Source of the DNA: a virus | Direction: 5' to 3' (one strand) | IMG/VR virus record: IMGVR_UViG_3300012204_000008 | Coordinates: 32,001 to 96,000 of that record | DNA length: 64,000 nt | Shown here: positions 4,113-62,215 of the stretch, piece after piece | Numbering within the stretch: the first letter of the stretch is position 1 | Layout: each line of letters starts with the position of its first letter | Notes under the pieces: generated by a model | Told to the model about the DNA's origin: nothing | The model's database searches: none | The model's input: only the letters and a program-made list of their open reading frames with translations | Made by a program: the position numbers and the translations under genes

Positions 4113-4261
4113 ATGTTTTATATGGAGAAGGTTACCTACGCGATTGTACTATCAACAAACAACGCCACTTATGTGGATGTGTAACTACTTTTGATATATG
4201 CCGTTGGAAATCCATCATCTTGTTATGTTGTGATGCCCATTCTGAGAATGGCTCCGTATGA
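4109..4261 (+). CDS. Small Cys-rich hypothetical protein
   Basis: GTGA overlap upstream and ATGA overlap downstream; 50 aa. Confidence 0.45.
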   Translation: MNVLYGEGYLRDCTINKQRHLCGCVTTFDICRWKSIILLCCDAHSENGSV

Positions 4262-5052
4262 GAGTTTTAATTTTAGGTTCTGGTCCAGCCGGGCTTATAG
4301 CTGCACAAGCGGCTAGTCAGCTTGGTATAGAAGACATAGTGATCCTAAGTAAGAAAAGGAAAAGTGAATTATTCGGCGCCCAGTATCTCCACGTCCCAAT
4401 TCCAGAAGCAACACAAACTGCTCCTGTTCAAATACGATACCGCCTCATTGGCTCACCAGAGCAATATCGCAAAAAGGTTTATGGTAATAACTGGAACGGT
4501 TTCGTTTCGCCAGAGGAATTGAATGGTAACCATTTAGCCTGGGACATACGCGAGACATACGACTTCTTGTGGAAGAAATTTGAAGGCGCAATTGAAGACG
4601 TCATTATTGACCCAATAGAAATTAATCATTCTCTATTGAGACTTAGGCCAGCTTTCACCTTTTCAACTATTCCTCTACCTTCTATCTGTATTAGATCATA
4701 TCATAAATTTCAGGCAGAATATATTTGGGCGATGGGTGATGCACCAGCTAGGGATCAAATTGTTCCAGTAAAGATGTTCTCAAATAGTGTTTTATGCAAT
4801 AGCCTTCCATCTCCTTCGTGGTATAGAGTCAGTAGAATTTTTGACCATTCAACTATAGAGTGGCCTTGGGGAGCGAAAGAAATAGGAGATTTACTTGACA
4901 AGGCTAGTCCTGTAACTAAGCCTCTTAAAACAGATTGTCATTGTTGGCCTAGTATCGTTAAAATTGGCAGATACGGTAAGTGGGAAAAAGGAGAATTAAG
5001 TCATACTGCATTTCGCATCGTAACAGAAAAGATAACGAATGGAAACGGATGA
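4258..5052 (+). CDS. FAD-dependent oxidoreductase (distantly UDP-galactopyranose mutase/protoporphyrinogen oxidase-like)
   Basis: N-terminal VLILGSGPAGL dinucleotide-binding motif, GAQYLH, STIP, C-terminal IGRYGKW. Confidence 0.75.
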   Translation: MRVLILGSGPAGLIAAQAASQLGIEDIVILSKKRKSELFGAQYLHVPIPEATQTAPVQIRYRLIGSPEQYRKKVYGNNWNGFVSPEELNGNHLAWDIRETYDFLWKKFEGAIEDVIIDPIEINHSLLRLRPAFTFSTIPLPSICIRSYHKFQAEYIWAMGDAPARDQIVPVKMFSNSVLCNSLPSPSWYRVSRIFDHSTIEWPWGAKEIGDLLDKASPVTKPLKTDCHCWPSIVKIGRYGKWEKGELSHTAFRIVTEKITNGNG

Positions 5053-5726
5053 ACAGAACTTATCCTCCCCGTAGCTCTACCTCTCATAACGGAATAAGAG
5101 AGATACTGCGGCCAGTATTTGGAATAGATCTAGACGGAACCCTAGGTGATTTTCACTCTCACTTTTTCAATTTTGCAGAGGGTTGGCTTGGCAAGAAGAT
5201 CGAGAGGAGATATCGTGGTGACGTCCCTATGACAAAGCATATAGGAATCAGTAAGGAACGTTATCGTAAGGTTAAGTTAGCTTATCGCCGTGGTGGCCTT
5301 AAACGTTCCATGCCAGTATATCCAGGCGCATGCGAACTTACATGCTCATTGCGAGAGAGGGGTGCCATTGTCATCATTTGTACCACTCGTCCTTATCTTC
5401 AAATTGATAATGTAGAGCCAGATACTATAGAATGGTTGCGTAGAAATCAAATACAATACGACGGCATAATATATGGCGAAAGGAAGTTTAAGGATCTAAA
5501 GAAGAGTTGGAATGGACAAATTGTAGCTGCCGTAGACGATTTACCGGAAATGATACTACAGGCTTATGACTGCGGGTTTCCAGGAATCATGATAGTTCGT
5601 AATCACAATATTCAATTTCACACAAAATGGAGAGAGAACAGCTTATACGAAGTTTCCAAACTATTGCATGAATTGTTAGACGAATGGGAGAAGGAAAATG
5701 AAGCTAATATTAGCACCAAGCGTTGA
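5049..5726 (+). CDS. HAD-superfamily 5'(3')-deoxyribonucleotidase-like protein
   Basis: GIDLDGT, ICTTRP, TIEWL, K, AVDDLP, HN motifs; ATG 5049 in ATGA overlap. Confidence 0.75.
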   Translation: MNRTYPPRSSTSHNGIREILRPVFGIDLDGTLGDFHSHFFNFAEGWLGKKIERRYRGDVPMTKHIGISKERYRKVKLAYRRGGLKRSMPVYPGACELTCSLRERGAIVIICTTRPYLQIDNVEPDTIEWLRRNQIQYDGIIYGERKFKDLKKSWNGQIVAAVDDLPEMILQAYDCGFPGIMIVRNHNIQFHTKWRENSLYEVSKLLHELLDEWEKENEANISTKR

Positions 5727-6021
5727 AGAACAGACAACCGACAGGCATAAACTTGCGATGCAAATGTTTCCTATCTTAGAAGAAGCTCTTAATCTTGCAA
5801 TGGAGAGACACAAGACGTATGGGAGTTCTTGGAAAAAACGAGGGTATATGGGCTCGATTTCTTGGATGGGAGCGAAAGTTGATAGGCTTCTAGGTATGCT
5901 TTGGACTGGAACTCCAAATCCCGATGAAAAGGTTATGAAAGATTGCGCATTAGATGAGATAAATTATTGCGTCTTTTTCGAGCTAAATCGTAGGGCTGGA
6001 AATAAATGGGGTCCGCAATGA
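5698..6021 (+). CDS. DUF1599 / nucleotide-modification-associated domain 1 (all-alpha NTP pyrophosphatase-like fold)
   Basis: ERHKTYGSSW...KVDRL...DCALDEINY pattern. Confidence 0.7.
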   Translation: MKLILAPSVEEQTTDRHKLAMQMFPILEEALNLAMERHKTYGSSWKKRGYMGSISWMGAKVDRLLGMLWTGTPNPDEKVMKDCALDEINYCVFFELNRRAGNKWGPQ

Positions 6022-6596
6022 TAGAGATAGACAGCCTAGAGAAAATTTGGGAGGACTATCAAGCCGACATCAACTTCACTCATCTAAGCGCTATTAGTAA
6101 TTTCGTTCCGGGAGAAGGGAATAAGAATGCCTCTCTCTTCTTTATTGGTGAGGCTCCAGGTGTATTGGAAAACGAACTTAAGCGTCCGTTCGTTGGTAAA
6201 AGCGGTAAACTTCTAACATCTTGCCTCCTTAGGATTGGCCTTGCAAGATCAGATGTCTGGATCACAAACGTTGTCAAATATAGGCCGCCAGGTAATAGAG
6301 ATCCTCATCCATTTGAGATTGAGGCTTCAACTCCTTTTCTTCGTAGAGAAATTAAGATAATCAAACCCAAAATTCTAGTGCCTCTTGGAAGAATAGCATT
6401 AGACCTTATAGTTCCAGGAGCAAGAATTGGTACTTCTCAAGGTCAATTGACATATACTGCCAACAACTTTCCTGTATTTCCTCTTTTTCATCCGTCATAT
6501 GTACTTCGTGGTGGGGAAAGGACCAAGGAGATGTATTTACAAAGTTTTGAAAGACTGCTACACTTGTTACAAGAGAAGGAAGTAAATGCAAACTAA
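6018..6596 (+). CDS. udg: Uracil-DNA glycosylase, family 4-like, lacking Fe-S cysteines
   Basis: GEAPG, RPFVGKSG, ITNVVKYRPPGNRDP, LGRIA, FHPSY; ATG 6018 in ATGA overlap. Confidence 0.85.
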   Translation: MIEIDSLEKIWEDYQADINFTHLSAISNFVPGEGNKNASLFFIGEAPGVLENELKRPFVGKSGKLLTSCLLRIGLARSDVWITNVVKYRPPGNRDPHPFEIEASTPFLRREIKIIKPKILVPLGRIALDLIVPGARIGTSQGQLTYTANNFPVFPLFHPSYVLRGGERTKEMYLQSFERLLHLLQEKEVNAN

Positions 6597-7711: not shown

Positions 7712-10700
7712 ATGGGAGACTTTGTAAGTCTACATCATCACAGCACATATAGCTACTTAGACGGATATGCGACTCCAGAAGAGCACATCATAGCAGCCGC
7801 CAATTTAGAAATGCCGGCTATGGCCCTTACCGAGCATGGAAATATATCGAGCCATGTCAAATTAGAGCAGGCGGCAAATAAGCACGGTATCAAGCCTCTT
7901 TTTGGAATTGAGGCTTATACAGGAAAGGTGGATGAAGATCGATCAAGATGGAAATGGCATCTAACCATACTTGCAATGAACCAGGAAGGATATCGTAATT
8001 TACTAAGAATAACCTCAAAGGGTTGGGCAGAAGGGTTTTTCTATGAACCTACGATATCAGGGGAAATGCTGGCTGAGCACAACGAAGGGCTCATTGTCCT
8101 TTCGGGTTGCAGCGGGTCCAAAATGGCCTGCGATCTCCTTGGAGGTAAGGGAGTACCTCCCCACGAAGTTGATTATGGATCTGCCATTGCCACGGCCAAT
8201 AAATTCCGCGATTTATTTGGAGATCGATATTACCTTGAGACGCAGGCTTTTCCTGAGTTAGAGAGAACTAGAAGTATTAATCAAGCATGGGAGAGAGTTT
8301 CTGAAGAGACTGGTATTCCGATTGTTGCAACCGGAGATGTTCATTATCCGCGCCCTAAAGATGGGGAAATGCAAGTCATCCTCCATGCAATTGATCGGGG
8401 CGGCCGCAATAACACAGTAGAAAAACAGTTGCAGTCGTGGGGATATGACATAAAGTTAACGAACTTCCGCGACGAAATTGTACTTCAGAAATTAATAGCT
8501 ACTGGTCTTAGTTCTCTTGCGGCAGAACAGGCAATTGCCAATACCGGGCTCATCGCAGACCGCTGTAATGTTACCCTGCCGAAGCTAAAAGAGCTACAGT
8601 TTCCTAGTAAAACACCAAACGAAGAACTTTTTAGGCAGTGGTTACGAAAAGGATGGAATTATCGTGGATTTGATAATCTGATTGGTGAAGAAAGAGGGCG
8701 ATACCTGCGTAGACTTAAGCATGAAATTTCTCTAATTGTAGAAAAGGGATTCATTGATTACTTCCTCGTTATTAGTGACGTCGTACGTTTTGCCAAACGC
8801 GAGGGTATCCCTGTCGGTCCAGCTCGAGGAAGCGCGGCCGGTAGTTTAGCCTGTTTTCTCCTCCGTATCACAGAAGTAAATCCAATGCTATTTTCGAACC
8901 TTTTGTTTGAAAGATTCATTGATAAAAACAGGCACGATATTCCAGATATTGATCTTGATTTCGATGATGAGCAACGTTGGAAGATTCGCCAATATCTCTG
9001 CGATCAGTATGGGGAAGATAGAGTAGGAAACATTGGAACCTTTGTAAAATACAAAGGTCGTAATTCTCTAATTGATGTAGCTCGCGTTCATAAAGTTCCA
9101 GTATGGGCTTTAGAGGGAGTAAAAGAAAAACTAATTGAGAGATCTTCGGGAGATTTGCGGGCTAATGCCACAATTGAAGACACAATTGAGATGTTCCCAG
9201 ACGTAAAAAAGATCTTTGAGCAGTTTCCAGAACTTTATCTCGCTAAACGCCTTGAAGGAAATCTTAGGGGATTCAGTGTTCATGCCGCCGGGCTGGTTGT
9301 AGCCAATGAACCACTTACCAATTCGGTAGCTGTCTATACTCGCATTGATAGTAAAACTGGTAATCGCGGTGAAGTTCTAAGTATTGACAAGTATGATGCC
9401 GAGTATCTTAACGCCCTGAAGATCGACTTTCTTGGTCTCAAAACAATGGGTGTAATTAGAAGATGCCTTGAATTAACTGGTATGAGCCTTGAGGAATTGT
9501 ATAAACTCCCATTAGACGACCCAGAAGTTTACGCAGGTTTCAAACGCAACGAAGTAATCGGTATCTTCCAGTTTGATGGTCGGGCAATGCGTTCAGTTAA
9601 TCGTGAAGTTAAGCCAGATAACTTTTCTGAATTAGCTGACATCAATGCTCTATCTCGTCCCGGTCCCCTCCATTCAGGTGCCGCAGCCGAGTATATAATG
9701 GTCAAACATAGAAAGAAAGAGCAAGAAGATCTCGGCGAAGTAGTAGCTCGTATTACTGAAGACAGCAACGGACAAATTGTTTATCAAGAATCTATATTAC
9801 AAGTAGTTAGGGAATTGGGCGGCTTCAGTTGGGAAGAGGCTGCCAGGATTCGTAAGCTGATTTCTAAGAAGCAAGGTGAACAAGCCTTCCAACAAATGAG
9901 AATGAAATTTATTAAGGGCGCAATAGGAAATGATTTAGAGGAAAGAATTGCAGATAAAGTATGGAAGCAACTTGTTACTGCGGGCGCGTATGCGTTCAAC
10001 AGAGCACATTCGATAAGCTATAGTATCATTGCTTACTGGACAATGTGGATCAAACAACACTTTCCGCTACAATTCTACTGTGCTTCGTTACAAAAGTACG
10101 ACCCAAAGACGAAAGGATTTGACCTCTTAAAGGAAGCTAAGAAGAAGGAAATTCCTGTCCTACCACCCCATCCTATCAGGAGTGAAATCACCTGGTCAAT
10201 TAACAAGGAACTTGGAGGACTTCAAGCTGGTATTACACAAATTCCAGGAATTGGTGAAAAAATCGCAACTGCGATGATAGACTACAGAGAGGCTGGAATT
10301 TCTGAGATAAAAGAATGGAAGGATTATTTACCAGTTCGTGGTATTGGGCCAAAAACAATTGAGTCCTTAGAAGAATTTTCAACAACTGAAGACCCGTTTG
10401 GCCTAGACCTCCTTACCAAAACCCTAGAAAAAGTTCGCGCATGGCTATGGGAAAATGGTGACGCAGAAGGGCTTCCTTTCCCAACTTCTACAGCAGAAGA
10501 TATTCCATATAGTGATATTGCAGGTCAACATGTTTGGCTCGGAACTGTCCGAGAAATTAACCTTAAGGATGTGATAGAATTACATAGATCGCGAACAGGA
10601 GAGGAATTAAATCCAGCCACTATCAAACAACCAGAATATCTCAATTATGCAGTATTAACCTGCGAGGATCAAACTGGTCCATTAGTAATAACTGTCCATA

Positions 10701-10852
10701 GATGGAACGGTCTTTATGAGAAATATAAGAAAGAGATATGGAATATCAAAAAAGATAGAGATTTGATATTGGTAAATGGATATAAGAGAAAGGAATTTCG
10801 CAGAGCCATTTATGCAAATAACATATGGATAATAAATACGGGGGAAATATGA
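7712..10852 (+). CDS. dnaE: DNA polymerase III alpha subunit (family C)
   Basis: PHP motifs LHHHSTYSYLDG, ALTEHGN, TGDVHY; GPARGSAAGS; catalytic PDIDLDF and KIDFLGL; YAFNRAHS; HhH and OB domains. Confidence 0.97.
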   Translation: MGDFVSLHHHSTYSYLDGYATPEEHIIAAANLEMPAMALTEHGNISSHVKLEQAANKHGIKPLFGIEAYTGKVDEDRSRWKWHLTILAMNQEGYRNLLRITSKGWAEGFFYEPTISGEMLAEHNEGLIVLSGCSGSKMACDLLGGKGVPPHEVDYGSAIATANKFRDLFGDRYYLETQAFPELERTRSINQAWERVSEETGIPIVATGDVHYPRPKDGEMQVILHAIDRGGRNNTVEKQLQSWGYDIKLTNFRDEIVLQKLIATGLSSLAAEQAIANTGLIADRCNVTLPKLKELQFPSKTPNEELFRQWLRKGWNYRGFDNLIGEERGRYLRRLKHEISLIVEKGFIDYFLVISDVVRFAKREGIPVGPARGSAAGSLACFLLRITEVNPMLFSNLLFERFIDKNRHDIPDIDLDFDDEQRWKIRQYLCDQYGEDRVGNIGTFVKYKGRNSLIDVARVHKVPVWALEGVKEKLIERSSGDLRANATIEDTIEMFPDVKKIFEQFPELYLAKRLEGNLRGFSVHAAGLVVANEPLTNSVAVYTRIDSKTGNRGEVLSIDKYDAEYLNALKIDFLGLKTMGVIRRCLELTGMSLEELYKLPLDDPEVYAGFKRNEVIGIFQFDGRAMRSVNREVKPDNFSELADINALSRPGPLHSGAAAEYIMVKHRKKEQEDLGEVVARITEDSNGQIVYQESILQVVRELGGFSWEEAARIRKLISKKQGEQAFQQMRMKFIKGAIGNDLEERIADKVWKQLVTAGAYAFNRAHSISYSIIAYWTMWIKQHFPLQFYCASLQKYDPKTKGFDLLKEAKKKEIPVLPPHPIRSEITWSINKELGGLQAGITQIPGIGEKIATAMIDYREAGISEIKEWKDYLPVRGIGPKTIESLEEFSTTEDPFGLDLLTKTLEKVRAWLWENGDAEGLPFPTSTAEDIPYSDIAGQHVWLGTVREINLKDVIELHRSRTGEELNPATIKQPEYLNYAVLTCEDQTGPLVITVHRWNGLYEKYKKEIWNIKKDRDLILVNGYKRKEFRRAIYANNIWIINTGEI

Positions 10853-11511
10853 AAGTTTGCACTATTTGCAAAGAATTAAAAGAAGATGTGGAATTCTATC
10901 ACACCCCAAGAAATAAAAATGGATTAACAAGTCGATGCAAAAAATGTCACAGTGAGATGGTGAAACAGTGTTCCAAAAATCTTAAGGCCTTTATGGTGAA
11001 CGGATACGGCGGTAAATGTAATTGCTGCTTTGAAGAGAATATTAAATTTCTAACTATAGATCATGTAGACGGTGGAGGAAGGTCTCATAGAAAAGAGTTG
11101 GGAAGAAAAAGAGTTTACTCTATAGCAATTCAAAATAATTTTCCTGAGGAATATCAGATATTGTGTTACAATTGCAACATTGCAAGATCTTACCATGGGC
11201 ATGGAATATGTCCGCATAAGAAAATTCCAGAAACTAGATATAAAAACCACAATTTAATAAAGATATGGGAAAAAGTTTTAGAGGCGTATGGAGGAAAATG
11301 TGAGTGTTGTTCCGAGATAAATGAATTTTTTCTTTCGATTGATCATATTGATCCATCCGATAAAAATAGAAAATTGAAGGGTGGTATACATCTATATAGG
11401 AGACTTATTAGAGAAAATTTTCCTAACGATGTTAGATTGTTATGCTATAACTGTAATTGTGCGAGGTCCAAAAATTATGGAATATGCCCTCATAAATACA
11501 TAGAAGGATAG
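10849..11511 (+). CDS. Free-standing HNH endonuclease with two tandem HNH domains
   Basis: N-terminal CxxC...CxxC, then two copies of YGGKCxCC...LxIDH...LCYNCN...GICPHK; AT-rich. Confidence 0.85.
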   Translation: MKVCTICKELKEDVEFYHTPRNKNGLTSRCKKCHSEMVKQCSKNLKAFMVNGYGGKCNCCFEENIKFLTIDHVDGGGRSHRKELGRKRVYSIAIQNNFPEEYQILCYNCNIARSYHGHGICPHKKIPETRYKNHNLIKIWEKVLEAYGGKCECCSEINEFFLSIDHIDPSDKNRKLKGGIHLYRRLIRENFPNDVRLLCYNCNCARSKNYGICPHKYIEG

Positions 11512-11519
11512 GAGATTCT

Positions 11520-12089
11520 ATGAAGCTAGAGCTCATTGAAAAAATGGACAATGTATACATGAAGTACAATCGCGCTCTAAGAGGAATTGAGATCAAGGAA
11601 GAGATAGATGAGATAGCGATCCTTTTTGAGAATAGAGAATTACTTGGACAATTTGTTGCTAACGCTGGGGAAGATTGGAACCATTTCGGCTCAGCTAGAG
11701 ATCTAGTATATACACGGCCAATGGATACTTCTTACCGTGTAATGTATGAGTTTTTTAATGTTGGAGGCAGACCATATAGGGTAGAAGCAATGGCGCTTAT
11801 TGATGGGCATTCGCCAGTCCATGCCTCTGCTACAGCCTTATTTCCTTATATGCCAAGTCCAGAATTGAAAATGGAATCACCACTTATCATTCATGCAAGT
11901 TGGAAATCCAAGAGTCGTTCATTGTACGGAGAAACCCTATGGCTTTTAGGGGTCAATCATTTTGAATTAGCGCAACAGTGCAAATCAGATTATGGAGAGT
12001 TCTGTTATTATAACCATCCACATTTAGGTTTCTCACCACCAATATACTTCAAGCCAAGACTAAACATGAGGGATGAAATTTATGGATAA
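11520..12089 (+). CDS. Putative VOC/glyoxalase-fold protein
   Basis: IDEIAILF / RVEAM...GHSP / IIHASWK / YGEFCYY parallel the strands of methylmalonyl-CoA-epimerase-like VOC proteins; AGGAG SD. Confidence 0.45.
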   Translation: MKLELIEKMDNVYMKYNRALRGIEIKEEIDEIAILFENRELLGQFVANAGEDWNHFGSARDLVYTRPMDTSYRVMYEFFNVGGRPYRVEAMALIDGHSPVHASATALFPYMPSPELKMESPLIIHASWKSKSRSLYGETLWLLGVNHFELAQQCKSDYGEFCYYNHPHLGFSPPIYFKPRLNMRDEIYG

Positions 12090-12786
12090 AGAAAAAGTTC
12101 TAGTTGTAGGTGCAAGACAAAATTCTCTAGGAGAAGCTGTTGCAAAACTCCTAAAAGAAGGAGACAATTTTTTTGAAGTTGTTACAGCGGGCCTAAATTA
12201 TGGAGGTCTTCAACCTCATGAGGATTATTCGCTAGATATTACCTCTTCTAATTCTTCATTGGCTCTAATTCTGAAAGAAATTCAGCCGAGGATCATCGTT
12301 TGTACGACCGGAATCAACGAACCATTTTCAATCTTAAAAGATGGTTTTATCGGTAACATTTGGAATCAAATGGAAATTAATTATTGTGGTGTCATGAATT
12401 TACTAAGCTGCTGCCTCAAGATAGACCTAGATCTTTCTCAGTTCGTAGCTGTCAGTAGTAATAGCGCCCATATTCCACGTAGTGAAAGTCTCGGATACTG
12501 TGCAAGTAAGGCTGCATTGAGCATGGGAATAAGAGTTGCAGCCAGAGAGGTGGCAAAAAATCTTAATTCACCTCCCTCGATCTATTGTTATGAGTTTGGT
12601 TTGCTTGAGGGTACGCCCATGACCAAAAAATTAGAAGAGAACTACGGATCTAATCTCACGAGAATGGTTGAATTACCAAGAGGGATTCCATTGGAGTTCG
12701 CGGCCATACATATTTACAACAATATTAGATATGGTGCAGAAGAACTTAACGGGGTCTGTCTCAGAATCGACAATGGAGAGATATAA
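12073..12786 (+). CDS. Short-chain dehydrogenase/reductase (SDR)
   Basis: VLVVGA..SLG Rossmann strand, AVSSNSA catalytic Ser, YCASK (YxxxK). Confidence 0.85.
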   Translation: MKFMDKEKVLVVGARQNSLGEAVAKLLKEGDNFFEVVTAGLNYGGLQPHEDYSLDITSSNSSLALILKEIQPRIIVCTTGINEPFSILKDGFIGNIWNQMEINYCGVMNLLSCCLKIDLDLSQFVAVSSNSAHIPRSESLGYCASKAALSMGIRVAAREVAKNLNSPPSIYCYEFGLLEGTPMTKKLEENYGSNLTRMVELPRGIPLEFAAIHIYNNIRYGAEELNGVCLRIDNGEI

Positions 12787-14796
12787 ATGAAACAAGAAAT
12801 TAGTAAGTTTGCTGATATCGCAATGTACCAGTCAGAAGAGATGCCAGATAATACAAAAAGTGCCCCAAAAGTTTACCTTCTCAACATGACAAGGGATCCC
12901 CTAGGATCAATTGCCGCAGCTTGCCAAATGTATGAGGGGAAGGTTATCAGAGATCTCTCACAAGTAACAGACGAACAAAGAAAGCGATATTTTGAACAAG
13001 TTCAAAAGACACATCTGCAAGCACCATTTGAATTTGTGGACTTCCATTTCATGATCGAGGGAGTAACTCGCGCCTTTACACACCAAATCGTCCGTCAACG
13101 TACGGCCTGTCTCTCTGGAGATACAGAAATTTATACAGAAAGAAAAGATAGACGTAGAACTATTGCTCAATTATATGATCAATGGAACAAAGGGGGGAAT
13201 CTTCGAGGTCCTTTAAGCAGAATAAAAATTAGAACTGTTACAGATGAAGGGATGATTGTTTATAGGACCATAGGGGCAGTATATCAAAATGGAATAAAGG
13301 ATGTTTGGGAAGTTAAAACTCATGATGGGAAAACTATAAAAACAACCGAAGATCATTTGTTATGGAGACCGAATAAAGAGTGGTCTGAGTTGCAAGATCT
13401 AAAAGTGGGAGATGAAATAGTAGCCAATGGCGTAGAGTTAGTCAAAGATGAGAAATGGCTTCACGATAAAATTGAGCAAGGTCTAAATTACGCACAAATC
13501 GCAAGGCTATCAAATTGTTCCAAACCCACCATCAAGAAATACTGCATAAGATATAATTTGTTTCCAAAGTCAAATGTAGATCTCGCAGCAGATGAGACAT
13601 GGTTAAAACAAAAAGTTAGCGAAGGATTTTCAACTAAACAAATAGCTGAGTTAGCTGATTGCTCAACTTCTCATGTGAAAAAATATCGTAGAGTCTACGA
13701 TATCCATGGACAAGGTGGTGTTCCAGTAGGTTTCAAACATTCTGAAGAATCCAAGATGAATATGAGAGGACCTAAGCCGAAATGGTCAGAGGAAGCTAAA
13801 CAAAAATTCAGCAAATGGTGTTTAGAAAATAGGGGAGGGAAAAACCCAGAAAATTATTCTGGAATGGATCCAGGACATAGAGTAGCCCAGGTCTTGTTCA
13901 ATCACCTTAAAGAAAAAGGCTGTGCTTGGTGCGGTGAAAACCATGGAAGAATGCAATTGGCACATTTAGACGGAAATCCAATGAATAATAAGCCAGGAAA
14001 TGTACAAGCTATGTGCAATCCATGCCATCATGCGATGGATACAGGATCTCTGCCAAGAAAAACATATCCGACAAAGATAGTTTCAATCTCTTATATCGGA
14101 AAGGAGATGACTTATGATATAGAAATGAATGGTGAATATCATAGATTTGTTGCTAATGGCTTAGTTGTTCATAATTGCTATGCCCAAGAGAGTCTAAGGT
14201 TTGCCGTTAAGAATAATTTACGTGAAGAGGTTAGGTTGCCACCTTCTCTTGCTAACACCACTTACGATGCAGAAGAACTAGACGAAGACAGCTATACCCT
14301 GGCCAGCAATGAACAGAGAATGAGAATGGATTGGGAACACGCTATTGACCAGATGGAGCAGATGTACCACAAGCTCATTGACAAAGGAATGCCAGCAGAG
14401 GACGCACGTGGCCTGCTGCCACATTCTGTGACCACACGGCTGCACTACAAGACCAACCTACGTGGGCTTCTAGAGCACCTTGGTAATCGTTTATGCACGC
14501 AAGCACAATTCGAATGGCGTTCAGTGGCCTCTGGAATCGTGCAAGCTATTAGAGAGTTTCCTTGCGAGAAAGAGTTTCGTTGGCAGCAAGAAACACTGTC
14601 GGAGATTTTTCGACCAGTCTGTTATCAATTAGGGCATTGTGCCTTCATGGCTGACTTTGATAGATACTGCTCTATTCGAGACCGTGTAGAAGAGCATCAC
14701 AAGAAGGGAGAACCCTCTACTATTTGGCTCGATATCCACCCGTCAGAATGGTTGAATAACCCAACAGGAGCTAGGGAGAAAAGAAATGATCTGTAA
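12787..14796 (+). CDS. thyX: Flavin-dependent thymidylate synthase (ThyX) homolog, intein-containing (313 aa after splicing)
   Basis: APFEF, EGVTRAFTHQIVRQRTA|CYAQESLRF, PAEDARGLLP, NLRGL, RLCTQAQFEWR. Confidence 0.9.
   Translation: MKQEISKFADIAMYQSEEMPDNTKSAPKVYLLNMTRDPLGSIAAACQMYEGKVIRDLSQVTDEQRKRYFEQVQKTHLQAPFEFVDFHFMIEGVTRAFTHQIVRQRTACLSGDTEIYTERKDRRRTIAQLYDQWNKGGNLRGPLSRIKIRTVTDEGMIVYRTIGAVYQNGIKDVWEVKTHDGKTIKTTEDHLLWRPNKEWSELQDLKVGDEIVANGVELVKDEKWLHDKIEQGLNYAQIARLSNCSKPTIKKYCIRYNLFPKSNVDLAADETWLKQKVSEGFSTKQIAELADCSTSHVKKYRRVYDIHGQGGVPVGFKHSEESKMNMRGPKPKWSEEAKQKFSKWCLENRGGKNPENYSGMDPGHRVAQVLFNHLKEKGCAWCGENHGRMQLAHLDGNPMNNKPGNVQAMCNPCHHAMDTGSLPRKTYPTKIVSISYIGKEMTYDIEMNGEYHRFVANGLVVHNCYAQESLRFAVKNNLREEVRLPPSLANTTYDAEELDEDSYTLASNEQRMRMDWEHAIDQMEQMYHKLIDKGMPAEDARGLLPHSVTTRLHYKTNLRGLLEHLGNRLCTQAQFEWRSVASGIVQAIREFPCEKEFRWQQETLSEIFRPVCYQLGHCAFMADFDRYCSIRDRVEEHHKKGEPSTIWLDIHPSEWLNNPTGAREKRNDL
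13108..14175 (+). mobile_element. Intein (356 aa) with HTH x2, NUMOD3 and HNH endonuclease
   Basis: Starts CLSGDTEI, block B TTEDH, block F TYDIEM, ends VVHN with +1 Cys; internal GFKHSEESK and CAWC...AHLDGNPMNN...CNPCH; AT-rich. Confidence 0.93.
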
Positions 14797-20857: not shown

Positions 20858-23644
20858 GTGCCTCATGATGGTGCAATGATAGCGTTAATTCCAACTGAGG
20901 GAGATCTAGAAAACCTCGTCTTAGAAAATTGGGAATCAAAGTCAAAGATTCACTTGACGCTTATTTTTCTTGGGGAAGCAGTTAATTGGAATTCAGAGTC
21001 AAAAGAACAAGTTCTCTCTATAGCGAGACTAGTAGCGCATGGTCATCCCACATTTGAAGGCCGAGGATTCGGAGCAAATTTCTGGAATCCTGATAGCGAG
21101 GAACCATGTTGGGTACTTGGTGTCGGTGGGTATGAGTTAGACTATCTCCGTTCTCATATTTACGGTAGAATGCTTGAACTAGATGAAAACGAAGAAAGAA
21201 TTCCAAATAATCATAGACCTTGGGTTCCACATATTTGTCTTGCCTACACTTCTGAGAATCTTCTTGACCAATTAGTTTCTAAAGTTGGTCCTATAACTTT
21301 TGATCGAATTAGAGTTGCATTCGGCGAAGAAGTCACAGATATTGCCTTGAGCGGCCCTGACAGTGTTACTGTTGCCTCGGCGGACAGACCAGTGGATGGC
21401 CAAGGAGGCACTGTGCCTTGGAAAGTTGAGAAAACCAGCGAGTGCCCAGATTCCAAACCTTGGGGCGTTGTTAATACCGAGACAGGCGATGTCGGTGGCC
21501 GATGCCATGAGTCTAAAGAGTCTGCCAGGCAGCAGCAGAAAGCACTATATGTTCACGCCGATGAAAAAGATTCTGGCGAGACTGTGGGCTTAGAGATAGA
21601 GAACGAAGAGTCCCACTTTGAGAATGCGCCGCAAGCTCTTTCCCCTGTAGAACTTCAGAAGGTTATGCTTGGCTGGAACGGTCCTGCCGCTATGTCTAAG
21701 TGTGCCAACTCTGATAGTCCAGCCTCATGCTATCGCTCAATTTGCGCTGGCCGCCGCGCTGGAGATCCAAGTAAGCAATCTACTTGGGCACTTCCTCATC
21801 ACGCTACTTCAGGCGGCCCGCCAGACGAAGGCGGAGTTAGAAACGCACTAAGCCGTCTACCGCAGACGCAAGGGCTAAGTAATGCCTCGGCTGCCAAAAG
21901 TCACTTGGAGAAGCACATGCGATCCATTAACCCAGACTATGAGGCAGAGGCAGAAGTGGTTTCTCTTCAGAAAGAAGATCAAGGTTGCCCTCCCGGCCAA
22001 CACGAAATGGACGGCAAGTGCATGCCAGATGAAGAAATGGCGATCTCTCAGTCTGGAGCATGGAAGGGACCGCTAGTAGTAGAAGGTATTACTACGGGAG
22101 ACGGTCGAGAATTCGCTCCAGGCGCACTTGACTGGCCAGACCCGTCTGAGACCCTTATTCCTTTAAGGTGGAATAAGGAGGACTCTCATGGTGGAGAAGT
22201 CAGAACAGTAGCAGTAAACGTTGGGCGCATTGATAAAATCTGGCGCGAAGACGACCGGATTATGGGTCAGGGTGTATTCGACCTTGGTCAGCCAGACGGT
22301 GCAGAAGCATTTCGCAGAGTACAAGAGAGATTCCTCCGTGGTATTTCTGTTGATGCAGATGACATCTCTAATGCAGATGTAGAATACGTCTGGCCTGAAA
22401 ATAACAGCGAGGGGGAGGAAGAAGACTCAGACCTTGACATCATGTCCCTTCTTTTCGGGCAGCCAGAGAAGATCGTCTTCCACAAAGGCAGAATTCGCGG
22501 TGCCACACTTTGCGACATACCAGCTTTTGTGGACGCATACATTGAAATCGCAGATGAGGTTGAAGAGCTCATCGCCTCAATTAATGCAGAAGAGGCCGAG
22601 CACTGGAATGTAGACACCAGGAATCTGGCATGGGACCTCAACTTAAACGAGAAGAGGCTTCCTACAAAATTAGAAATTCGCGCTGCTCGGCATATGTATG
22701 CCTATGTTGATCAGAGCGCTGTTGAAGATGGCAAGATTCCGCGTTCTTCCTGTCGTCTACCGCATCACAACGTAGAAAAAGACGGAACAATTAGTGGCGC
22801 AAATATTGATGGAAGCAAGCTTGCTATTGAATCTATAAACAGGCTTCGCGGTGGAGCCAATATGAGCAATAGCGACCGTAGAAAGGCTTATGATCACCTT
22901 GCTAAGCACATGCGAGTTGGCGGTAAGGAACCGCCAGAGTTTGAAATCGACAAGAGCCTTGTTGCTTCAGTCGGAAACGAATGGAAACCATCTAGGGAAT
23001 GGTTTGAGGATCCTAGGCTCAACGTTTTGGTTCCAATCATGGTTACCGATGCCGGTAGGGTCTACGGACACGCCGCACAGTGGGGCCAGTGTCATTTAAG
23101 TTATCAAGACACTTGTATCATCGCCCCAAGAGAAGATGGGTTCCCGTACTTCCTAACAGGTGAACTTACATGTTCAGATGGCAGCTTGGTTGCGGTAGGG
23201 CAGATCACCGTAGACACCGGCCATCCACCGCTCTATGTAGGACCGCACGTCGCAATGGAGCATTACGACAATACTGGAGCAGTTGTAGCCGATGTAGTTG
23301 TGGGAAATGATAGACATGGAATTTGGGTGGCTGGTGCAATTAGACCAGACGCAGAGGTTAGTCGAGTTCATAAACTACGTGCCTCTGGTCAAGTTTCTCC
23401 AGACTGGCGGCGCATAGGTGGGCAATTGCGTATGATAGCGTTACTAACAGTAAATGGTTCTGGCTACCAAGTGCCAAAGATGAGGGCTAGAGTAGCTAGC
23501 GGCCATGTGCAGTCGTTGGTAGCTGCTGGTAGGGTTACTAGTGTTTCACGTGGCCTAAGCGAGGACGAACTTTCGCAGAAAGCACTGAGAGTCTTGGCTA
23601 ATAGAATCGCTAAGCGTGTAGGACTTGACAAGGAGAAATCATGA
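20858..23644 (+). CDS. Capsid maturation protease fused to an N-terminal 2H phosphoesterase and repeated LPHH modules
   Basis: HLTL...PHICL 2H motifs; TGDGR...HGG...VGRID...GISVD...GATLCDIPAF protease-like domain; second domain GRVYGH...GIWVAG...SPDWR. Confidence 0.8.
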   Translation: MPHDGAMIALIPTEGDLENLVLENWESKSKIHLTLIFLGEAVNWNSESKEQVLSIARLVAHGHPTFEGRGFGANFWNPDSEEPCWVLGVGGYELDYLRSHIYGRMLELDENEERIPNNHRPWVPHICLAYTSENLLDQLVSKVGPITFDRIRVAFGEEVTDIALSGPDSVTVASADRPVDGQGGTVPWKVEKTSECPDSKPWGVVNTETGDVGGRCHESKESARQQQKALYVHADEKDSGETVGLEIENEESHFENAPQALSPVELQKVMLGWNGPAAMSKCANSDSPASCYRSICAGRRAGDPSKQSTWALPHHATSGGPPDEGGVRNALSRLPQTQGLSNASAAKSHLEKHMRSINPDYEAEAEVVSLQKEDQGCPPGQHEMDGKCMPDEEMAISQSGAWKGPLVVEGITTGDGREFAPGALDWPDPSETLIPLRWNKEDSHGGEVRTVAVNVGRIDKIWREDDRIMGQGVFDLGQPDGAEAFRRVQERFLRGISVDADDISNADVEYVWPENNSEGEEEDSDLDIMSLLFGQPEKIVFHKGRIRGATLCDIPAFVDAYIEIADEVEELIASINAEEAEHWNVDTRNLAWDLNLNEKRLPTKLEIRAARHMYAYVDQSAVEDGKIPRSSCRLPHHNVEKDGTISGANIDGSKLAIESINRLRGGANMSNSDRRKAYDHLAKHMRVGGKEPPEFEIDKSLVASVGNEWKPSREWFEDPRLNVLVPIMVTDAGRVYGHAAQWGQCHLSYQDTCIIAPREDGFPYFLTGELTCSDGSLVAVGQITVDTGHPPLYVGPHVAMEHYDNTGAVVADVVVGNDRHGIWVAGAIRPDAEVSRVHKLRASGQVSPDWRRIGGQLRMIALLTVNGSGYQVPKMRARVASGHVQSLVAAGRVTSVSRGLSEDELSQKALRVLANRIAKRVGLDKEKS

Positions 23645-23751
23645 TTCGTGACAGAAATTATTTTGTCGCCGGATGCGGATGTCGAGGTAGCGGTAGTAGC
23701 GCTCCGCCGCCTCCGCCTCCACCTCCCGTTGGTGGAAGTGGTGGAACGTAA
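23641..23751 (+). CDS. 36-aa GCGC/poly-Pro microprotein (not in ORF track)
   Basis: AAGGAG SD, ATGA overlap; MIRDRNYFVAGCGCRGSGSSAPPPPPPPPVGGSGGT. Confidence 0.6.
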   Translation: MIRDRNYFVAGCGCRGSGSSAPPPPPPPPVGGSGGT

Positions 23752-23815
23752 ATAGCGGATAAACAAACTCCGCGTTAGTTCTTTGCAGAGTTAGCTTTTG
23801 TTGTATAGTACAAAC

Positions 23816-23904
23816 TGAAGGCATCGGTCTAAGCCTTCAAATGCCGTGATGGCAGGTCTACTCTAAGAGTAGCAATCAATTTGCCGTGCGGTATTTGGGA
23901 GGAG
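23816..23904 (+). promoter_or_regulatory. Structured 5' leader of the major capsid gene
   Basis: Hairpin 23816-23839; nested stems 23838-23847/23888-23897, 23849-23856/23880-23887 and 23858-23863/23867-23872, ending at the GGGAGGAG SD. Confidence 0.5.
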
Positions 23905-23910
23905 ACCAAC

Positions 23911-25665
23911 ATGCCTGATGAGCTGGTCACAGTTCCGCAGGATCTTACGCTGGTCAGTGACGAAGATCTCGCCCAGCTCGAGGCTAAGGTCACTGCCGAG
24001 TTTACAAGGATTAACGAAGGGGACGTTTCCCCTGAGAGCTTGGAGTATATGCTCCAGCTCGCAGAAGACCTAGACCGCATTCGCTCTGAGAATTCGGCTA
24101 GAGACCAGCGGCGTACTGAGGCCGCTAAGCTCGCCGATCTCAAGATGCACGAGCAGAAAAAGGCTCTTGAGGCTAGGGTCAAAGGCGTCTCTGCTGATCC
24201 GGTTACTAGGGACGAATCTGAAGTCTCTAAGGAATACGCCGGAGCTATCGCCAAGGCCGCCGCTGAGGGTGCTACCGCTGCGCTTGTGGCTGCGCTTGGT
24301 GACGACAAACGCGGTGGCCGTGACTTCTCTGCCATTAGTGAAAAAGCAACGAAGTCTCTTTCCGCGGCTCGCCGGCACGCGCCTTCTGTCAATCTTCCGA
24401 AGGCCAAGCTTCAGGTTCAGGCCGGAGTTGACATTCCCGGTATTGCTCGCGGTGGCGAGCTCAGTACTCTTGAGTCCGTTACGGACGCCTTTCACCGTCG
24501 GGCAAAGGGTATGCCGGACAGCCGTGGACAGCTTCGTGAGGAACTGGTTTGTACGATCAAGAACCAGTTTGAGCACACAGTAGATGACCGCACTTCGCCT
24601 GCTCAGGTTGAAGAGCTTTTCAGTTTCTTGCGTTCACGTGACAAGCAGGAAGCTCTCGTCGCTGGTGGTGGTTGGTGTGCGCCTTCAGAAATTCGTTATG
24701 ACTTCTTTAATGTCGCTTGTGAGTCTGGTCTTATTGACCTTCCCACCTTCGGTGTGAGCCGTGGTGGTATTCGTTATCCGGTTAGCCCTAGCATTGCAGA
24801 TGCCTTCGGCTCCAACGCTCTCGCTCCATTCAACGTTTCATTTACCAACACTTCAGTTCCGTGGCTTTGGACAGAAGCTGATGACATTCTGACTATCACC
24901 GGTACTACCAACAAGCCAACGATGCGAGTGCCGTGCCCGACGTTCTCTGAGAACCGGTTGGAATGCTACGGCGTCACGCTCACTGCCGGTAACCTCACGG
25001 ACGACGCCTATCCTGAGGCTACTCAGAACACGCTGCGTTTGCTGATGTCAGCCCACGCACACGCCATGAATGCCCGTATCATTTCTTTGATGGTCACTAA
25101 TAGCACGGCAGCAATCACTGGTATCTCCGGTACGAACCCTGTCTACCAGCAGGTTCTTGACGGTGTGGACATGGCCGCTACTGACTACCGCGCTCGTTAT
25201 GCCATGTGTGACGATGATGTTCTTGAGCTCGTCGTTCCTTATTGGCTCAAGGCCGTTATCCGTGCGGACCTTGCCTGGCGTGCTGGCACTGCAGACCTTC
25301 TCTCTGTCAGTGACGCTCAGATTGTTGGATACTTCGCTGACAGAAACGTTCGTCCGCAGTTTATCAATGACTGGCAGGTTAGAGGTTCTGGCCAGTTCGG
25401 TGGTACTACTGCGGTGGTTGCGTGGCCTACGAGCGTTAACGTCATGCTCTATGCCGCTGGTACCTTCCTGCTTGGTAATGGCCTCAGCCTTGACCTTGGT
25501 GTTATCCGTGACTCAGTGCTAAACGCAGAGAACGACTTTACAGCCGCCTGGTCTGAGGAATGCCATCTCCTCGCGAGGGTTGGTCACGAGTCTCGTCTCT
25601 ACACCATTGGCTTCAACGTTAAGGGTGCGACTTCTGCCACTCTTACTGACAACGCAAAGGTCTAA
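23911..25665 (+). CDS. Major capsid (hexamer) protein with N-terminal coiled-coil scaffold region
   Basis: GGAGGAG SD before ATG 23911; coiled-coil N-terminus; LVAGGGWCAPSEIRYD, LDLGVIRDS.LN..ND motifs; high-expression codon bias. Confidence 0.9.
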   Translation: MPDELVTVPQDLTLVSDEDLAQLEAKVTAEFTRINEGDVSPESLEYMLQLAEDLDRIRSENSARDQRRTEAAKLADLKMHEQKKALEARVKGVSADPVTRDESEVSKEYAGAIAKAAAEGATAALVAALGDDKRGGRDFSAISEKATKSLSAARRHAPSVNLPKAKLQVQAGVDIPGIARGGELSTLESVTDAFHRRAKGMPDSRGQLREELVCTIKNQFEHTVDDRTSPAQVEELFSFLRSRDKQEALVAGGGWCAPSEIRYDFFNVACESGLIDLPTFGVSRGGIRYPVSPSIADAFGSNALAPFNVSFTNTSVPWLWTEADDILTITGTTNKPTMRVPCPTFSENRLECYGVTLTAGNLTDDAYPEATQNTLRLLMSAHAHAMNARIISLMVTNSTAAITGISGTNPVYQQVLDGVDMAATDYRARYAMCDDDVLELVVPYWLKAVIRADLAWRAGTADLLSVSDAQIVGYFADRNVRPQFINDWQVRGSGQFGGTTAVVAWPTSVNVMLYAAGTFLLGNGLSLDLGVIRDSVLNAENDFTAAWSEECHLLARVGHESRLYTIGFNVKGATSATLTDNAKV

Positions 25666-25718
25666 TTAGTCTCAATCGGGGTGGTAACTGTAATAGTCGG
25701 AAGGGAGTGTGAAGGTCG

Positions 25719-26594
25719 ATGGCCGGTGCGCGGCAGATAGTGGATGGCCCGACCTTCACCCCCTCCAGACTTGGACTACTTGATGTAGTACAGTTTCCAA
25801 CTCCCGCCGGACCGCATTGGCAAAATGGAATTACGTGGGCTTCCACTTGTGTAACTGGCGGTACAACTTACGACGAGTGCATCACCGTTACTGGAACTGG
25901 CAGCCCACCCGCTCCCGCCGCATTTGCGGATAACGTAGATTGGAACAATAGAGGAGCTACCCCGTTCACTATTTACACAGAATTTGACTGCTCCCCGGTT
26001 GGTTTCTTTGAAGATGCACAAAAACTAGCCGAGGAGATGCTAGCTAAGAGCGAAAGCTGGCAAGTAGAGCAAGCGGTATGGACAGGGACGGCAGGGGGTA
26101 CGGCAAACGCCGTCTGGCCGCATCTTGCAGCTTTCACGGCAGCAGTAGATTCTCAGAGCATAACACTACAATCTCCTGCCGTAACAGGTGGGCTCCTCAA
26201 GCCATCTAGGGCACTTGGGGCAGTGGAAGCCATACTAGCTGATTGTTACCACGGACAAGGCGTTATCCACATACCACTGGACATTCTGAATACTTTTATT
26301 CAGAACGGAATGATGTTCCGACAGTCCGATGGATCTTATTTAACTCCCTCGGGAAATCTCGTAGTGGCTGGCTCTGGTTATCCAGGAACTAGTCCTCAGG
26401 GTGCCGCGCCTGCCGCCAATACGATGTGGATTTATGCTACTGGCGCTATTTTTGCTTATCGTAGTGCCGTTAGAATTCATTCTCCACGCGAGTCACTTGA
26501 CCGTGCAGAGAATACAGTAAAAATGATCGCTCAGCGTACATACGTCCTTGGTTGGGACTGCTGTCACGCTGGTGTTTTGGTAGACCTGGCTTAG
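25719..26594 (+). CDS. Second capsid protein (pentamer-type HK97-fold protein)
   Basis: HWQNG...C, PFTIY..FDCS, VEQAVW, TPSGN.VV.G.GY, WIYATG motifs; directly follows the capsid gene. Confidence 0.65.
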   Translation: MAGARQIVDGPTFTPSRLGLLDVVQFPTPAGPHWQNGITWASTCVTGGTTYDECITVTGTGSPPAPAAFADNVDWNNRGATPFTIYTEFDCSPVGFFEDAQKLAEEMLAKSESWQVEQAVWTGTAGGTANAVWPHLAAFTAAVDSQSITLQSPAVTGGLLKPSRALGAVEAILADCYHGQGVIHIPLDILNTFIQNGMMFRQSDGSYLTPSGNLVVAGSGYPGTSPQGAAPAANTMWIYATGAIFAYRSAVRIHSPRESLDRAENTVKMIAQRTYVLGWDCCHAGVLVDLA

Positions 26595-26612
26595 TAACGG
26601 AAAGGTAGAGCT

Positions 26613-27290
26613 ATGGCATCGATATGTGGAGCACCGATCAAAGGCTCGATGCTTCGTGTCACTAAGCTGGACGTTTGTGGAGTGCCAGTTACGGGAGCCT
26701 CTGGTCTCGTCTATACCACTAAGGGTTTTGTCCAGGTGCAGATGGCACCGCAGTATGAGGACGGCGAAGAGTTCTTCGAGCGTACTGCCGACGGTACCCT
26801 CTGCGTGAACCAGAAAGACGACCCGATTCTTAAGCGTTTCCAGCTTACGATCGACATGTGTGAAATTGACCCCGATGGTATTTCATACGTGCTGTCGGCT
26901 CGAGAACTTGCCACTACTGGTCCTGTCAGCGGTTATGGTTTCGCCATGAGCGAAGGAAAACCAACAAACCGCTTTGGATTGGAAGTATGGCAGGAAGTGG
27001 CTGGCTCCGGTGCCTGCGACGCTTCTGGTGTTCAGCGTTACATCTATAACGTCTGGCCGAATGTTGGCGCATCTCGTATTGGTAACTACACGATTGAGAA
27101 CGGTAGATCAACACTTCAGTTCATAGCCGAGACTAAGGCAGCTAGCTCCTTGTGGGGTAATGGCCCAGGAGCGGCTAGCTGGCTACCGGCTACAGGTACG
27201 ACGACTCTCTTGTCCACTGAACACTGGGCTTGGAATATCACGACTGTCGCGCCGCCGACTGCCCAGTGTGGCGCTGGAATAGTTGCGTAA
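26613..27290 (+). CDS. Major tail protein
   Basis: RVTKLD.CG.P, EDGEEF...ADG.LC, FGLEVW; high-expression codon bias; position. Confidence 0.8.
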   Translation: MASICGAPIKGSMLRVTKLDVCGVPVTGASGLVYTTKGFVQVQMAPQYEDGEEFFERTADGTLCVNQKDDPILKRFQLTIDMCEIDPDGISYVLSARELATTGPVSGYGFAMSEGKPTNRFGLEVWQEVAGSGACDASGVQRYIYNVWPNVGASRIGNYTIENGRSTLQFIAETKAASSLWGNGPGAASWLPATGTTTLLSTEHWAWNITTVAPPTAQCGAGIVA

Positions 27291-27309
27291 GGAATGGAGT
27301 TATGGGTAA

Positions 27310-27627
27310 ATGATCCCCATATTGCAAGCCACTAAACATTGGTGGTGTCCAAACTGTAACTTGACCGATGTGACGCATGAAGTTCGACCGCATACTCGTA
27401 TGCACTCTTGCAATGGACTTTATGGATTAACATCGCCAATGGTTCCAGTTGGACAAAAAGCTAAATCCATAATGCATGAGCCGGATGATTACGTGAAACA
27501 TGAAAACGTAACTTACGCAGAAGTGGACAATAAGTCACGTCCTGTTATGAATATCGTCACGACTCGTGACAACGGCGAAGATTGCACGGTGTTTGCACCA
27601 TGCGCAACGATCAGGTCGGAGGGCTGA
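27310..27627 (+). CDS. Hypothetical Cys/His phage protein
   Basis: WWCPNC...PHTRMHSC; TGATG coupling to next gene. Confidence 0.7.
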   Translation: MIPILQATKHWWCPNCNLTDVTHEVRPHTRMHSCNGLYGLTSPMVPVGQKAKSIMHEPDDYVKHENVTYAEVDNKSRPVMNIVTTRDNGEDCTVFAPCATIRSEG

Positions 27628-28115
27628 TGCCAGGCCAAGATGAAATTAATCAGCTTGTCGCAGAGGTACGCTCTGATCTGCGCACAAGAGCCACTAAGAC
27701 AGCACAGAACGCTGCCTTAGTTTCATTTTTTGAGGAACACAGTAGACCACCTACTATTGAAGAGCTCTCTACTGAGATTTCAATTGTAGAACCAACCGAT
27801 ACGCAAGTAGTATCATTTTTAGATGCTGCCGCTGCACATAGCGTTGGTAGACTTAGAGCTGCTGAGCAACACGTCGTCAATGCAGAACGCAAAGTTGCCA
27901 AAGCCGAAACGCATCTTGTGGCAGCACAGACTGCACTGTCAGAAGCACAAGAAGAGCTTGAGCGCATCCGTGTTGAGTCGGAAACGTGGGAAGCGGCAGC
28001 GGTACAGGCAGCTAGTTCATTTACTAATTCTTCTTCTACAGAGCTTAACGGTAATTTGTCTTCGGGTGGTGGAGTAGCACTTAGCGCGACAGTGCGCACA
28101 GAGGACGGTGTCTGA
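27627..28115 (+). CDS. Coiled-coil hypothetical protein
   Basis: ATG 27627 after GGAGG; TGATG couplings at both ends; heptad-rich. Confidence 0.65.
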   Translation: MPGQDEINQLVAEVRSDLRTRATKTAQNAALVSFFEEHSRPPTIEELSTEISIVEPTDTQVVSFLDAAAAHSVGRLRAAEQHVVNAERKVAKAETHLVAAQTALSEAQEELERIRVESETWEAAAVQAASSFTNSSSTELNGNLSSGGGVALSATVRTEDGV

Positions 28116-28594: not shown

Positions 28595-28608
28595 TCAATA
28601 GGAGTTTC

Positions 28609-31275
<2,667 letters not shown>

Positions 31276-31292
31276 TGCAACGGTGGTAGCCA

Positions 31293-62000: not shown

Positions 62001-62215
62001 GAGAAAAGAGAGAAAAACTAATGGAGATTATGGGGAAGGTAGGAGATGAAGAGATGAAGGCTATTTCCTCTGCGAGAAAAGCTGTTATGGAAGCCTGGGT
62101 CTGTCCGTTATGTGATCACGAACATTTTGCTTTTCGCTGCGAAGAATACATTGACGGATACGGGGCGCCAGAGCAGTACTGCCACTGTCCGCCTAGATTT
62201 GTTGAGGGCTCATGA
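61997..62215 (+). CDS. Small Cys/His hypothetical protein
   Basis: CPLCDHEH...C...CHC; ATGA couplings. Confidence 0.55.
   Translation: MREKREKLMEIMGKVGDEEMKAISSARKAVMEAWVCPLCDHEHFAFRCEEYIDGYGAPEQYCHCPPRFVEGS

Follow-up and report, generated by a model that had tools for sequence, protein, structure and literature searches.

A gene of the flavin-dependent thymidylate synthase (ThyX) family that is interrupted by an intein was studied in a viral DNA stretch of 64,000 nt (the window), which comprises positions 32,001-96,000 of the IMG/VR record IMGVR_UViG_3300012204_000008. All long open reading frames (ORFs) of the window are on the + strand, and the phage genes among them include those for a D5-type primase/helicase, a DnaE-type polymerase, a terminase and structural proteins. 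Among isolates the phage has no close counterpart: in DnaE it reaches at best 48% identity, to phages of Streptomyces, Arthrobacter and Microbacterium. The ThyX-like ORF at 12787-14796 (+) encodes 669 amino acids (aa). Pfam Thy1 (PF02511) matched it in two stretches that flank the intein, with an E-value of 3.3e-32 and a score of 112.3 bits, compared with a gathering threshold of 24.8 bits and with 90-127 bits for its relatives. Removal of intein residues 108-463 gives a spliced protein of 313 aa, in agreement with the original prediction, and the motifs quoted there were found in place, i.e. KTHLQAPFEF, HQIVRQRTA joined to CYAQESLRF across the junction, and TQAQ as part of RLCTQAQ. The gene contains the following features.

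12787..13107, + strand: N-extein, residues 1-107, ending in HQIVRQRTA; first stretch of the Pfam Thy1 match, aligning with the N-terminal halves in 80 of 80 related loci
13006..13035, + strand: KTHLQAPFEF, with the Leu codon 13015-13017 at the position of Thermotoga maritima H53 and Mycobacterium tuberculosis H69
13012..13014, + strand, within KTHLQAPFEF: His codon (H76 of the query), one residue before the Leu (L77)
13108..14175, + strand: intein of 356 aa, residues 108-463, with two helix-turn-helix (HTH) domains and an HNH homing-endonuclease region
14176..14796, + strand: C-extein, residues 464-669 plus stop, starting with CYAQESLRF; phmmer match to T. maritima ThyX chains at 5e-06
14488..14508, + strand: RLCTQAQ, with the R174 equivalent present, Cys at the D176 and Gln at the H178 position
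14620..14670, + strand: C-x5-C-x9-C (C256, C262 and C272 of the spliced protein), inside a C-terminal extension of ~80 aa

The intein was matched by Pfam Intein_splicing (1.5e-11), TIGR01445 (2e-11), TIGR01443 (0.0025), HTH_23 and HNH phrogs. Its hallmarks are present: Cys1 in the starting sequence CLSGD, TTEDH (TxxH) as block B, the ending VVHN with its terminal HN, and Cys+1. The insertion point (RQRTA/C) is the T. maritima S83 position in the ThyX motif, and the clade members P0146, P0147 and P0205 are interrupted at the same profile position, also with Cys+1. The Cys of the query at the S83 position is the +1 nucleophile of the intein; relatives carry Val there.

For the mapping of the active-site residues a profile of 43 relatives was searched against the PDB sequences of solved ThyX chains. 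K-T-x-L-x-A-P-L/F-E aligned without gaps to V-G-H-F-S-V-L-E-H of M. tuberculosis and K-H-G-H-E-T-P-F-E-H of T. maritima, which places L77 of the query at the H69/H53 position, three residues ahead of the P/V-F/L-E anchor. According to a citation in PMC9931769, the His at this position is part of the extended ThyX motif. Elsewhere in the query, RHR has become RQR, S.RY has become S.RF, and R-A-D-S-H-A-Q reads R-L-C-T-Q-A-Q. Counts over the clade were taken from an alignment of 242 sequences, in which relatives share 40-60% identity or less. The Leu that had been predicted at the H53 position is systematic: His occurs in none of 235 members (L 220, I 7, S 7, T 1). The Y91 site is Phe in 234/238 members, the H178 site Gln in 236/239 and the D176 site Cys in 232/237, and the N85 site is occupied by Ala, Val, Ser or Ile. 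More variation was seen at the S83 site (V 132, A 28, S 26, T 24), and at the H79 site, i.e. the His of RHR (Q 186, T 24, N 8, Y 8, H 5). The change of RHR to RQR, one of three signals on which the original prediction had relied, is the least informative of them and was rejected as meaningful, as the site is variable in the clade and a shorter sister group retains RHR yet shares all other clade changes.

The residues on the nucleotide side of the site are retained, as are most of those of the flavin site. The contacts to deoxyuridine monophosphate (dUMP) are near-invariant: R78 in 233/237 members, R80 in 234/237, S88 in 236/238, R90 in 238/239, Q75 in 234/236, and both R147 and R174 in all 238. 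This bears out the expectation that Q75, R147, R174, S88 and R90 would be kept. The equivalents of E58, R165 and E144 are conserved as well.

In the reduced T. maritima enzyme the H53 imidazole is stacked on the flavin and H-bonded by Y91 and N85 (PMC11940539). When dUMP is bound H53 swings out, and it later stacks on the pterin (PMC11940539; PMC8316439); it lines a site that is common to folate and NADPH (PMC3498832; PMC11940539). Y91, the H-bond partner of H53, is the proposed general acid (PMC8316439; PMC11940539). The Y91F exchange rearranges the active site, and Y91 variants slow the methylene-transfer/flavin-oxidation step 100-1000-fold (PMC11940539; PMC8316439). The loss of H53 in the clade is thus coupled to the loss of the two residues that hold it. 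As exactly this H-bonded triad is replaced, the change of H53-Y91-N85 to Leu-Phe-Ala is, judged from the alignment, a coherent remodelling of the folate/NADPH face and not drift; by the same alignment the pattern is far above chance, since it recurs across the 242 relatives.

A dUMP-binding flavoenzyme with a carbon donor other than methylenetetrahydrofolate (CH2-THF) had been proposed from these substitutions. The substitutions are real and systematic, but they do not show that the donor is changed. Loss of the His alone does not exclude CH2-THF, because a crystal of T. maritima H53A still contains folate, judging by the title of PDB entry 4gtf, and because the E144 equivalent is conserved.

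Four Cys are a further property of the clade. C214, at the D176 position, and C256, C262 and C272 in the C-terminal extension are all present in 220 of 232 full-length members; together with L77, F116 and Q216 they form the signature residues of the query. In P0186 and P0198 all four Cys are replaced together (S, D, R, S). The joint loss in two lineages suggests that the four Cys act as one unit, and the site they form is probably metal-binding. A fold model was made for the relative P0008, whose identity to the query is 65% in the N-extein and 54% in the C-extein. This AlphaFold2 (AF2) model has a pLDDT of 88 (86-96 in the C-terminal extension) and matches 1o26, 2af6 and 3gwc with a Foldseek E-value of 3e-10 and TM scores of 0.65-0.78 on the target. 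On this model, the ThyX fold is retained in the clade.

The ThyX-like gene lies in a replication module with these neighbours.

4258..5052, + strand: FAD/NAD(P)-binding flavoprotein of 264 aa, phrog_8720, with a GxGxxG Rossmann match
4980..5726, + strand: HAD/NT5C-type 5'-(deoxy)nucleotidase (Pfam NT5C, 6.3e-09)
7712..10852, + strand: DnaE-type DNA polymerase III alpha, core of the module (Pfam PHP, DNA_pol3_alpha and finger domains; phrog_405)
12073..12786, + strand: FabG-like short-chain dehydrogenase/reductase (SDR; Pfam adh_short, 1e-07; phrog_3142), whose stop codon abuts the start codon of the ThyX-like gene

The query combines L53/F91/C176/Q178 and C-x5-C-x9-C with the flavoprotein gene at 4258-5052 in the same module, and it belongs to the clade on these grounds. 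Neighbourhoods were counted in 80 IMG/VR loci. In 63 of them a flavoprotein homologue is encoded upstream of the ThyX-like gene and on the same strand; the 17 loci that lack it are cut off upstream, which means that every locus with sufficient flank (63 of 63) has it. DnaE was found in 68 of the 80 loci, the NT5C/HAD nucleotidase in 45, directly after the flavoprotein gene, and an SDR homologue within 10 kb in 16. Among isolates the flavoprotein is annotated as 'oxidoreductase' in 126 records, from the same phage groups as the ThyX-like clade, and the nucleotidase carries the labels '5' nucleotidase', 'phosphatase' or 'nucleotide pyrophosphohydrolase'. In the phage Prager the order is oxidoreductase, 5'-nucleotidase, methyltransferase, an unnamed gene, FabG-like reductase, DnaE, another unnamed gene, ThyX-like and RuvC, and the module of Streptomyces phage Rooney additionally carries a dCMP deaminase, a dUMP source.

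The AF2 model of the flavoprotein (pLDDT 96) has a minimal two-domain FAD fold. Its best structural match is UDP-galactopyranose mutase (UGM, 4dsg; VIA Z 14.8), followed at Z 11-13 by PHBH-type monooxygenases, protoporphyrinogen oxidase and DAAO. Against PDB sequences the flavoprotein gave a match in the Rossmann motif only, and the SDR gave none. A complex prediction for the ThyX-like protein and the flavoprotein of one phage (the L002 pair, with alignments) scored 0.01, which counts neither way.

Some further genes of the window are of local interest. A uracil-DNA glycosylase superfamily gene at 6006-6596 (Pfam UDG, 1.9e-32) lies within the module and occurs in 4 of the 80 related loci only. 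A Cys-rich ORF at 10825-11511, which separates dnaE from the gene that follows, contains two endonuclease VII/HNH-like repeats; it is probably a free-standing homing endonuclease, because none of the 80 related loci has a counterpart. Two ORFs at the right end of the window (62212-62871 and 63355-63939) resemble family-2 glycosyltransferases (Pfam Glycos_transf_2, E ~1e-08). The composition is markedly mosaic for a single phage genome: the G+C content is 50-58% at 22000-34000, and the replication module has 37-45%.

A word-indexed search yielded 1686 relatives of 113-361 aa. When 1.84 billion representatives were searched exhaustively with a profile, 2531 clusters matched at E<=1e-10, and 163 at E<=1e-30. 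Many of the 50%-identity cluster representatives (P0122-P0187) have N-terminal extensions of 100-250 aa without a Pfam match; these could reflect start codons called too far upstream in phages of high G+C, or else a genuine additional domain. The isolates with members of the clade are phages of Mycobacterium (cluster D), Gordonia, Microbacterium and Arthrobacter and, more divergent, of Streptomyces, where the gene is labelled 'ThyX-like thymidylate synthase'. When 185,579 species genomes were scanned with a pattern, four clade-like matches emerged, and the two on contigs long enough for a check of gene content (L088 and L089) are accompanied by phage genes. The clade is essentially confined to phages. 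Five complete related phage genomes have one Thy1 gene each and no ThyA. Another atypical type of ThyX was noticed in the cellular Thy1 genes at L092:9782-10561 (Solirubrobacterales), L093:9638-10573 (Mycobacterium sp.) and L094:3296-4171 (Verrucomicrobia), which keep H53 and RHR; these read SQLSQQY, with Gln at the T. maritima R90 position, and E-R-G-A..G-D-E-E in place of R..S-H-A.

What does an enzyme of this kind make? The chances seem about even that it still makes dTMP, in a pocket rebuilt on the folate/NADPH side, and supplies thymidylate for DnaE-based replication. Protein splicing would then yield a flavin-dependent, ThyX-fold enzyme to which dUMP and FAD bind as they do in canonical ThyX, dUMP being the presumed substrate and dTMP the presumed product. 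On the folate/NADPH side of the flavin its pocket would be rebuilt by the replacement of H53-Y91-N85 with Leu-Phe-Ala and of H178 with Gln, and the new four-Cys site, probably a metal site, would anchor the C-terminal extension on the helix of the active site. Part of the reductive half-reaction may fall to the co-inherited flavoprotein, or else the flavoprotein may have the product as its substrate. The Thy1 match and the ThyX fold, with the retained dUMP contacts and the E58, R165 and E144 equivalents, argue for a dTMP synthase, as do the folate in the H53A crystal (by the 4gtf title), the constant position in the replication module, and the single Thy1 gene without ThyA in the five complete phage genomes. 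The dCMP deaminase of Rooney, as a source of dUMP, is consistent with it. Inteins usually occupy essential sites, and the presence of one in the most conserved ThyX motif was also counted in its favour. In databases the members of this virus-only branch are named 'thymidylate synthase' by similarity alone.

Several observations weigh against this assignment. Canonical thyX genes spread freely, while the clade was not found outside phage-like contigs in the 185,579 species genomes, which is odd for a plain housekeeping activity. The clade scores only around the cut-off of the TIGR02170 equivalog (87.9 bits): 81.3 bits for the query, which is split by the intein, and 84.9, 89.3 and 91.5 bits for intein-free relatives. 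ThyX needs no partner, yet the flavoprotein accompanies the gene in every adequately flanked locus, and a nucleotidase or pyrophosphatase is common. H53, which stacks on folate, and Y91, with its 100-1000-fold effect (PMC8316439; PMC11940539), are both lost in all members of the clade. The literature searched contained no assay of any clade member.

It is conceivable, if doubtful, that the enzyme is a dUMP C5-alkylase that uses a non-folate aldehyde, such as an aldose or a sugar phosphate activated on flavin N5. Its product, formed in concert with the UGM-fold flavoprotein, the HAD phosphatase and the SDR, would be a precursor of hypermodified thymidine of the 5-(polyhydroxyalkyl)-dUMP type. 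UGM attacks the anomeric carbon of a sugar with its flavin N5, and the strict linkage to a flavoprotein with UGM as its best structural match fits such a role, as does the virus-only distribution. The polar triad that canonical enzymes have at the folate/NADPH site (PMC11940539) is wholly replaced by hydrophobic residues, and formaldehyde in free form can serve ThyX as a substrate by way of a flavin carbinolamine (PMC8316439). H53 and Y91 are also missing, and the Cys pattern is present, in distant relatives from Pbunavirus (NH-4), XcP1 and Vibrio PVA7, with a weak homologue of the flavoprotein encoded nearby, and the DNA of the Pbunavirus phages F8 and 14-1 carries a thymidine derivative of 362/390 Da (PMC12191111). 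By arithmetic, 362.3 equals dU plus an aldopentose minus H2O plus 2H, which would fit a reductive alkylation of the ThyX type with an aldopentose. This mark is confined to TG, however, and an enzyme that modifies free nucleotides would not account for such a context. In phage SP-15 a dihydroxypentyl-uracil is made from ribose at the nucleotide level and an orphan Thy1 gene overlaps an SDR gene (PMC5977210), but the product of that orphan gene, gp130, is outside the clade. Moreover, no modified base has been reported for the actinophages that carry the clade and none could be inferred for the window, the SDR accompanies the gene in the minority of loci counted above, and the module is perhaps co-inherited merely as part of a replication block. 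Some palindromes that contain TG are slightly under-represented in the window (CAGCTG 2 against 14 expected, GTGCAC 1 against 10). This is a weak hint that the window DNA is restrictable and does not decide about modification. We regard it as unlikely that the clade and the UGM-fold flavoprotein constitute a new flavin-dependent nucleotide alkylase, which would couple a non-folate aldehyde to C5 of dUMP as the missing first step of sugar-derived thymidine hypermodifications like that of Pbunavirus DNA.

Alternatively, the carbon donor could be unchanged and the supply of electrons altered: the Cys would be ligands of zinc or of an Fe-S cluster, and the flavoprotein would be a reductase that replaces the direct binding of NADPH at the H53 site. 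That H53 lines the site shared by folate and NADPH (PMC3498832; PMC11940539) points in this direction, and so do the 'one distant plus three clustered' arrangement of the four Cys, with their joint loss in two lineages, and the dinucleotide-binding fold of the obligate flavoprotein partner. As both the metal binding and a contact between the two proteins would have to be assumed, and proteins of the PHBH/UGM fold are not typical flavin reductases, this explanation is distinctly improbable. Finally, that H76 replaces H53 in an enzyme that is an ordinary ThyX throughout, a substitution the original prediction had allowed for, is highly improbable: a His precedes the Leu in the query and in P0008, but at this position Lys (79, 34%) is as common as His (68 of 233, 29%), with Arg in a further 26 (11%), the residue is one position out of helical register relative to the PFE anchor, and a shifted His would not remedy the loss of Y91, N85 and H178.

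ThyX is a drug target and the textbook case of flavin-mediated methylene transfer, and H53 and Y91 are central to current models of its mechanism, while well over 1000 sequence clusters do without both. The clade occurs in phages of teaching collections and is close to therapeutic Pbunavirus phages. If its members make dTMP, the reaction can do without H53 and Y91, and the clade reveals how their loss is made good in nature. If they do not, they would represent a new route to modified DNA bases.

With the canonical enzymes of T. maritima (TM0449), M. tuberculosis (Rv2754c), Corynebacterium glutamicum and PBCV-1 (A674R) the clade shares the Thy1 family and fold and the equivalents of Q75, R78, R80, S88, R90, R147, R174, E58, R165 and E144. 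It differs from them by the exchanges H53 to Leu, Y91 to Phe, N85 to Ala/Val and H178 to Gln, by the variable H79 and the loss of H59, by the Cys at D176 and the C-terminal extension of ~80 aa with C-x5-C-x9-C, by an identity of ~20% to solved ThyX, and by its restriction to viruses with an obligate flavoprotein neighbour. The ThyX-like proteins of actinobacteriophages (PBI1 gp65 and Prager gp69 of Mycobacterium cluster D; Gordonia, Microbacterium and Arthrobacter phages) belong to the same clade, with 30-43% identity over the C-extein, and match the query in signature and module (oxidoreductase, 5'-nucleotidase, FabG-like reductase, DnaE, ThyX-like and RuvC). The window differs from these phages by its G+C content of 37-58%, by the intein in the ThyX-like gene and by the SDR gene that directly abuts it.

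The ThyX proteins of Pbunavirus NH-4 (I7A_061c), Xanthomonas XcP1 and Vibrio PVA7 likewise lack His53 and Tyr91 and have the Cys at D176 and C-terminal Cys; their genes adjoin DnaE, as in the module of the clade, and the flavoprotein profile weakly matches NH-4 I7A_067c and XcP1_050. With an identity of ~29-31%, they differ in having R-T-R or R-N-R for RQR, Ala or Ile rather than Phe at Y91 and Arg at H178. In F8 and 14-1 the thymidine derivative, described as a sugar-alcohol or aldopentose derivative, replaces about one-quarter of T, in TG context, and its genes are unassigned (PMC12191111, Yee, Lee et al.).

In SP-15 (L104:7026-8911) the stop of the SDR gene (129) overlaps the start of an orphan, divergent Thy1 gene (130), and the SDR and ThyX-like genes of the window are coupled likewise. 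The side chain at C5 of uracil in SP-15 has five carbons, derives from ribose and is made at the nucleotide level (PMC5977210). The role of gp130 is a hypothesis of Kropinski et al. (2018); as a member of the clade gp130 was rejected, since it is not detectably within it, and SP-15 also has a separate canonical-like Thy1, gp9, with H53 and Y91. Finally, the ThyA-family dUMP/dCMP hydroxymethylases of phages and the 5-hydroxy-dCMP synthase of RB69/DLP3 (PMC13326640; PMC8989533) are a precedent for virus-only offshoots with altered chemistry that make other C5-substituted nucleotides. Their fold is unrelated to that of ThyX, and the analogy is one of evolutionary logic only.

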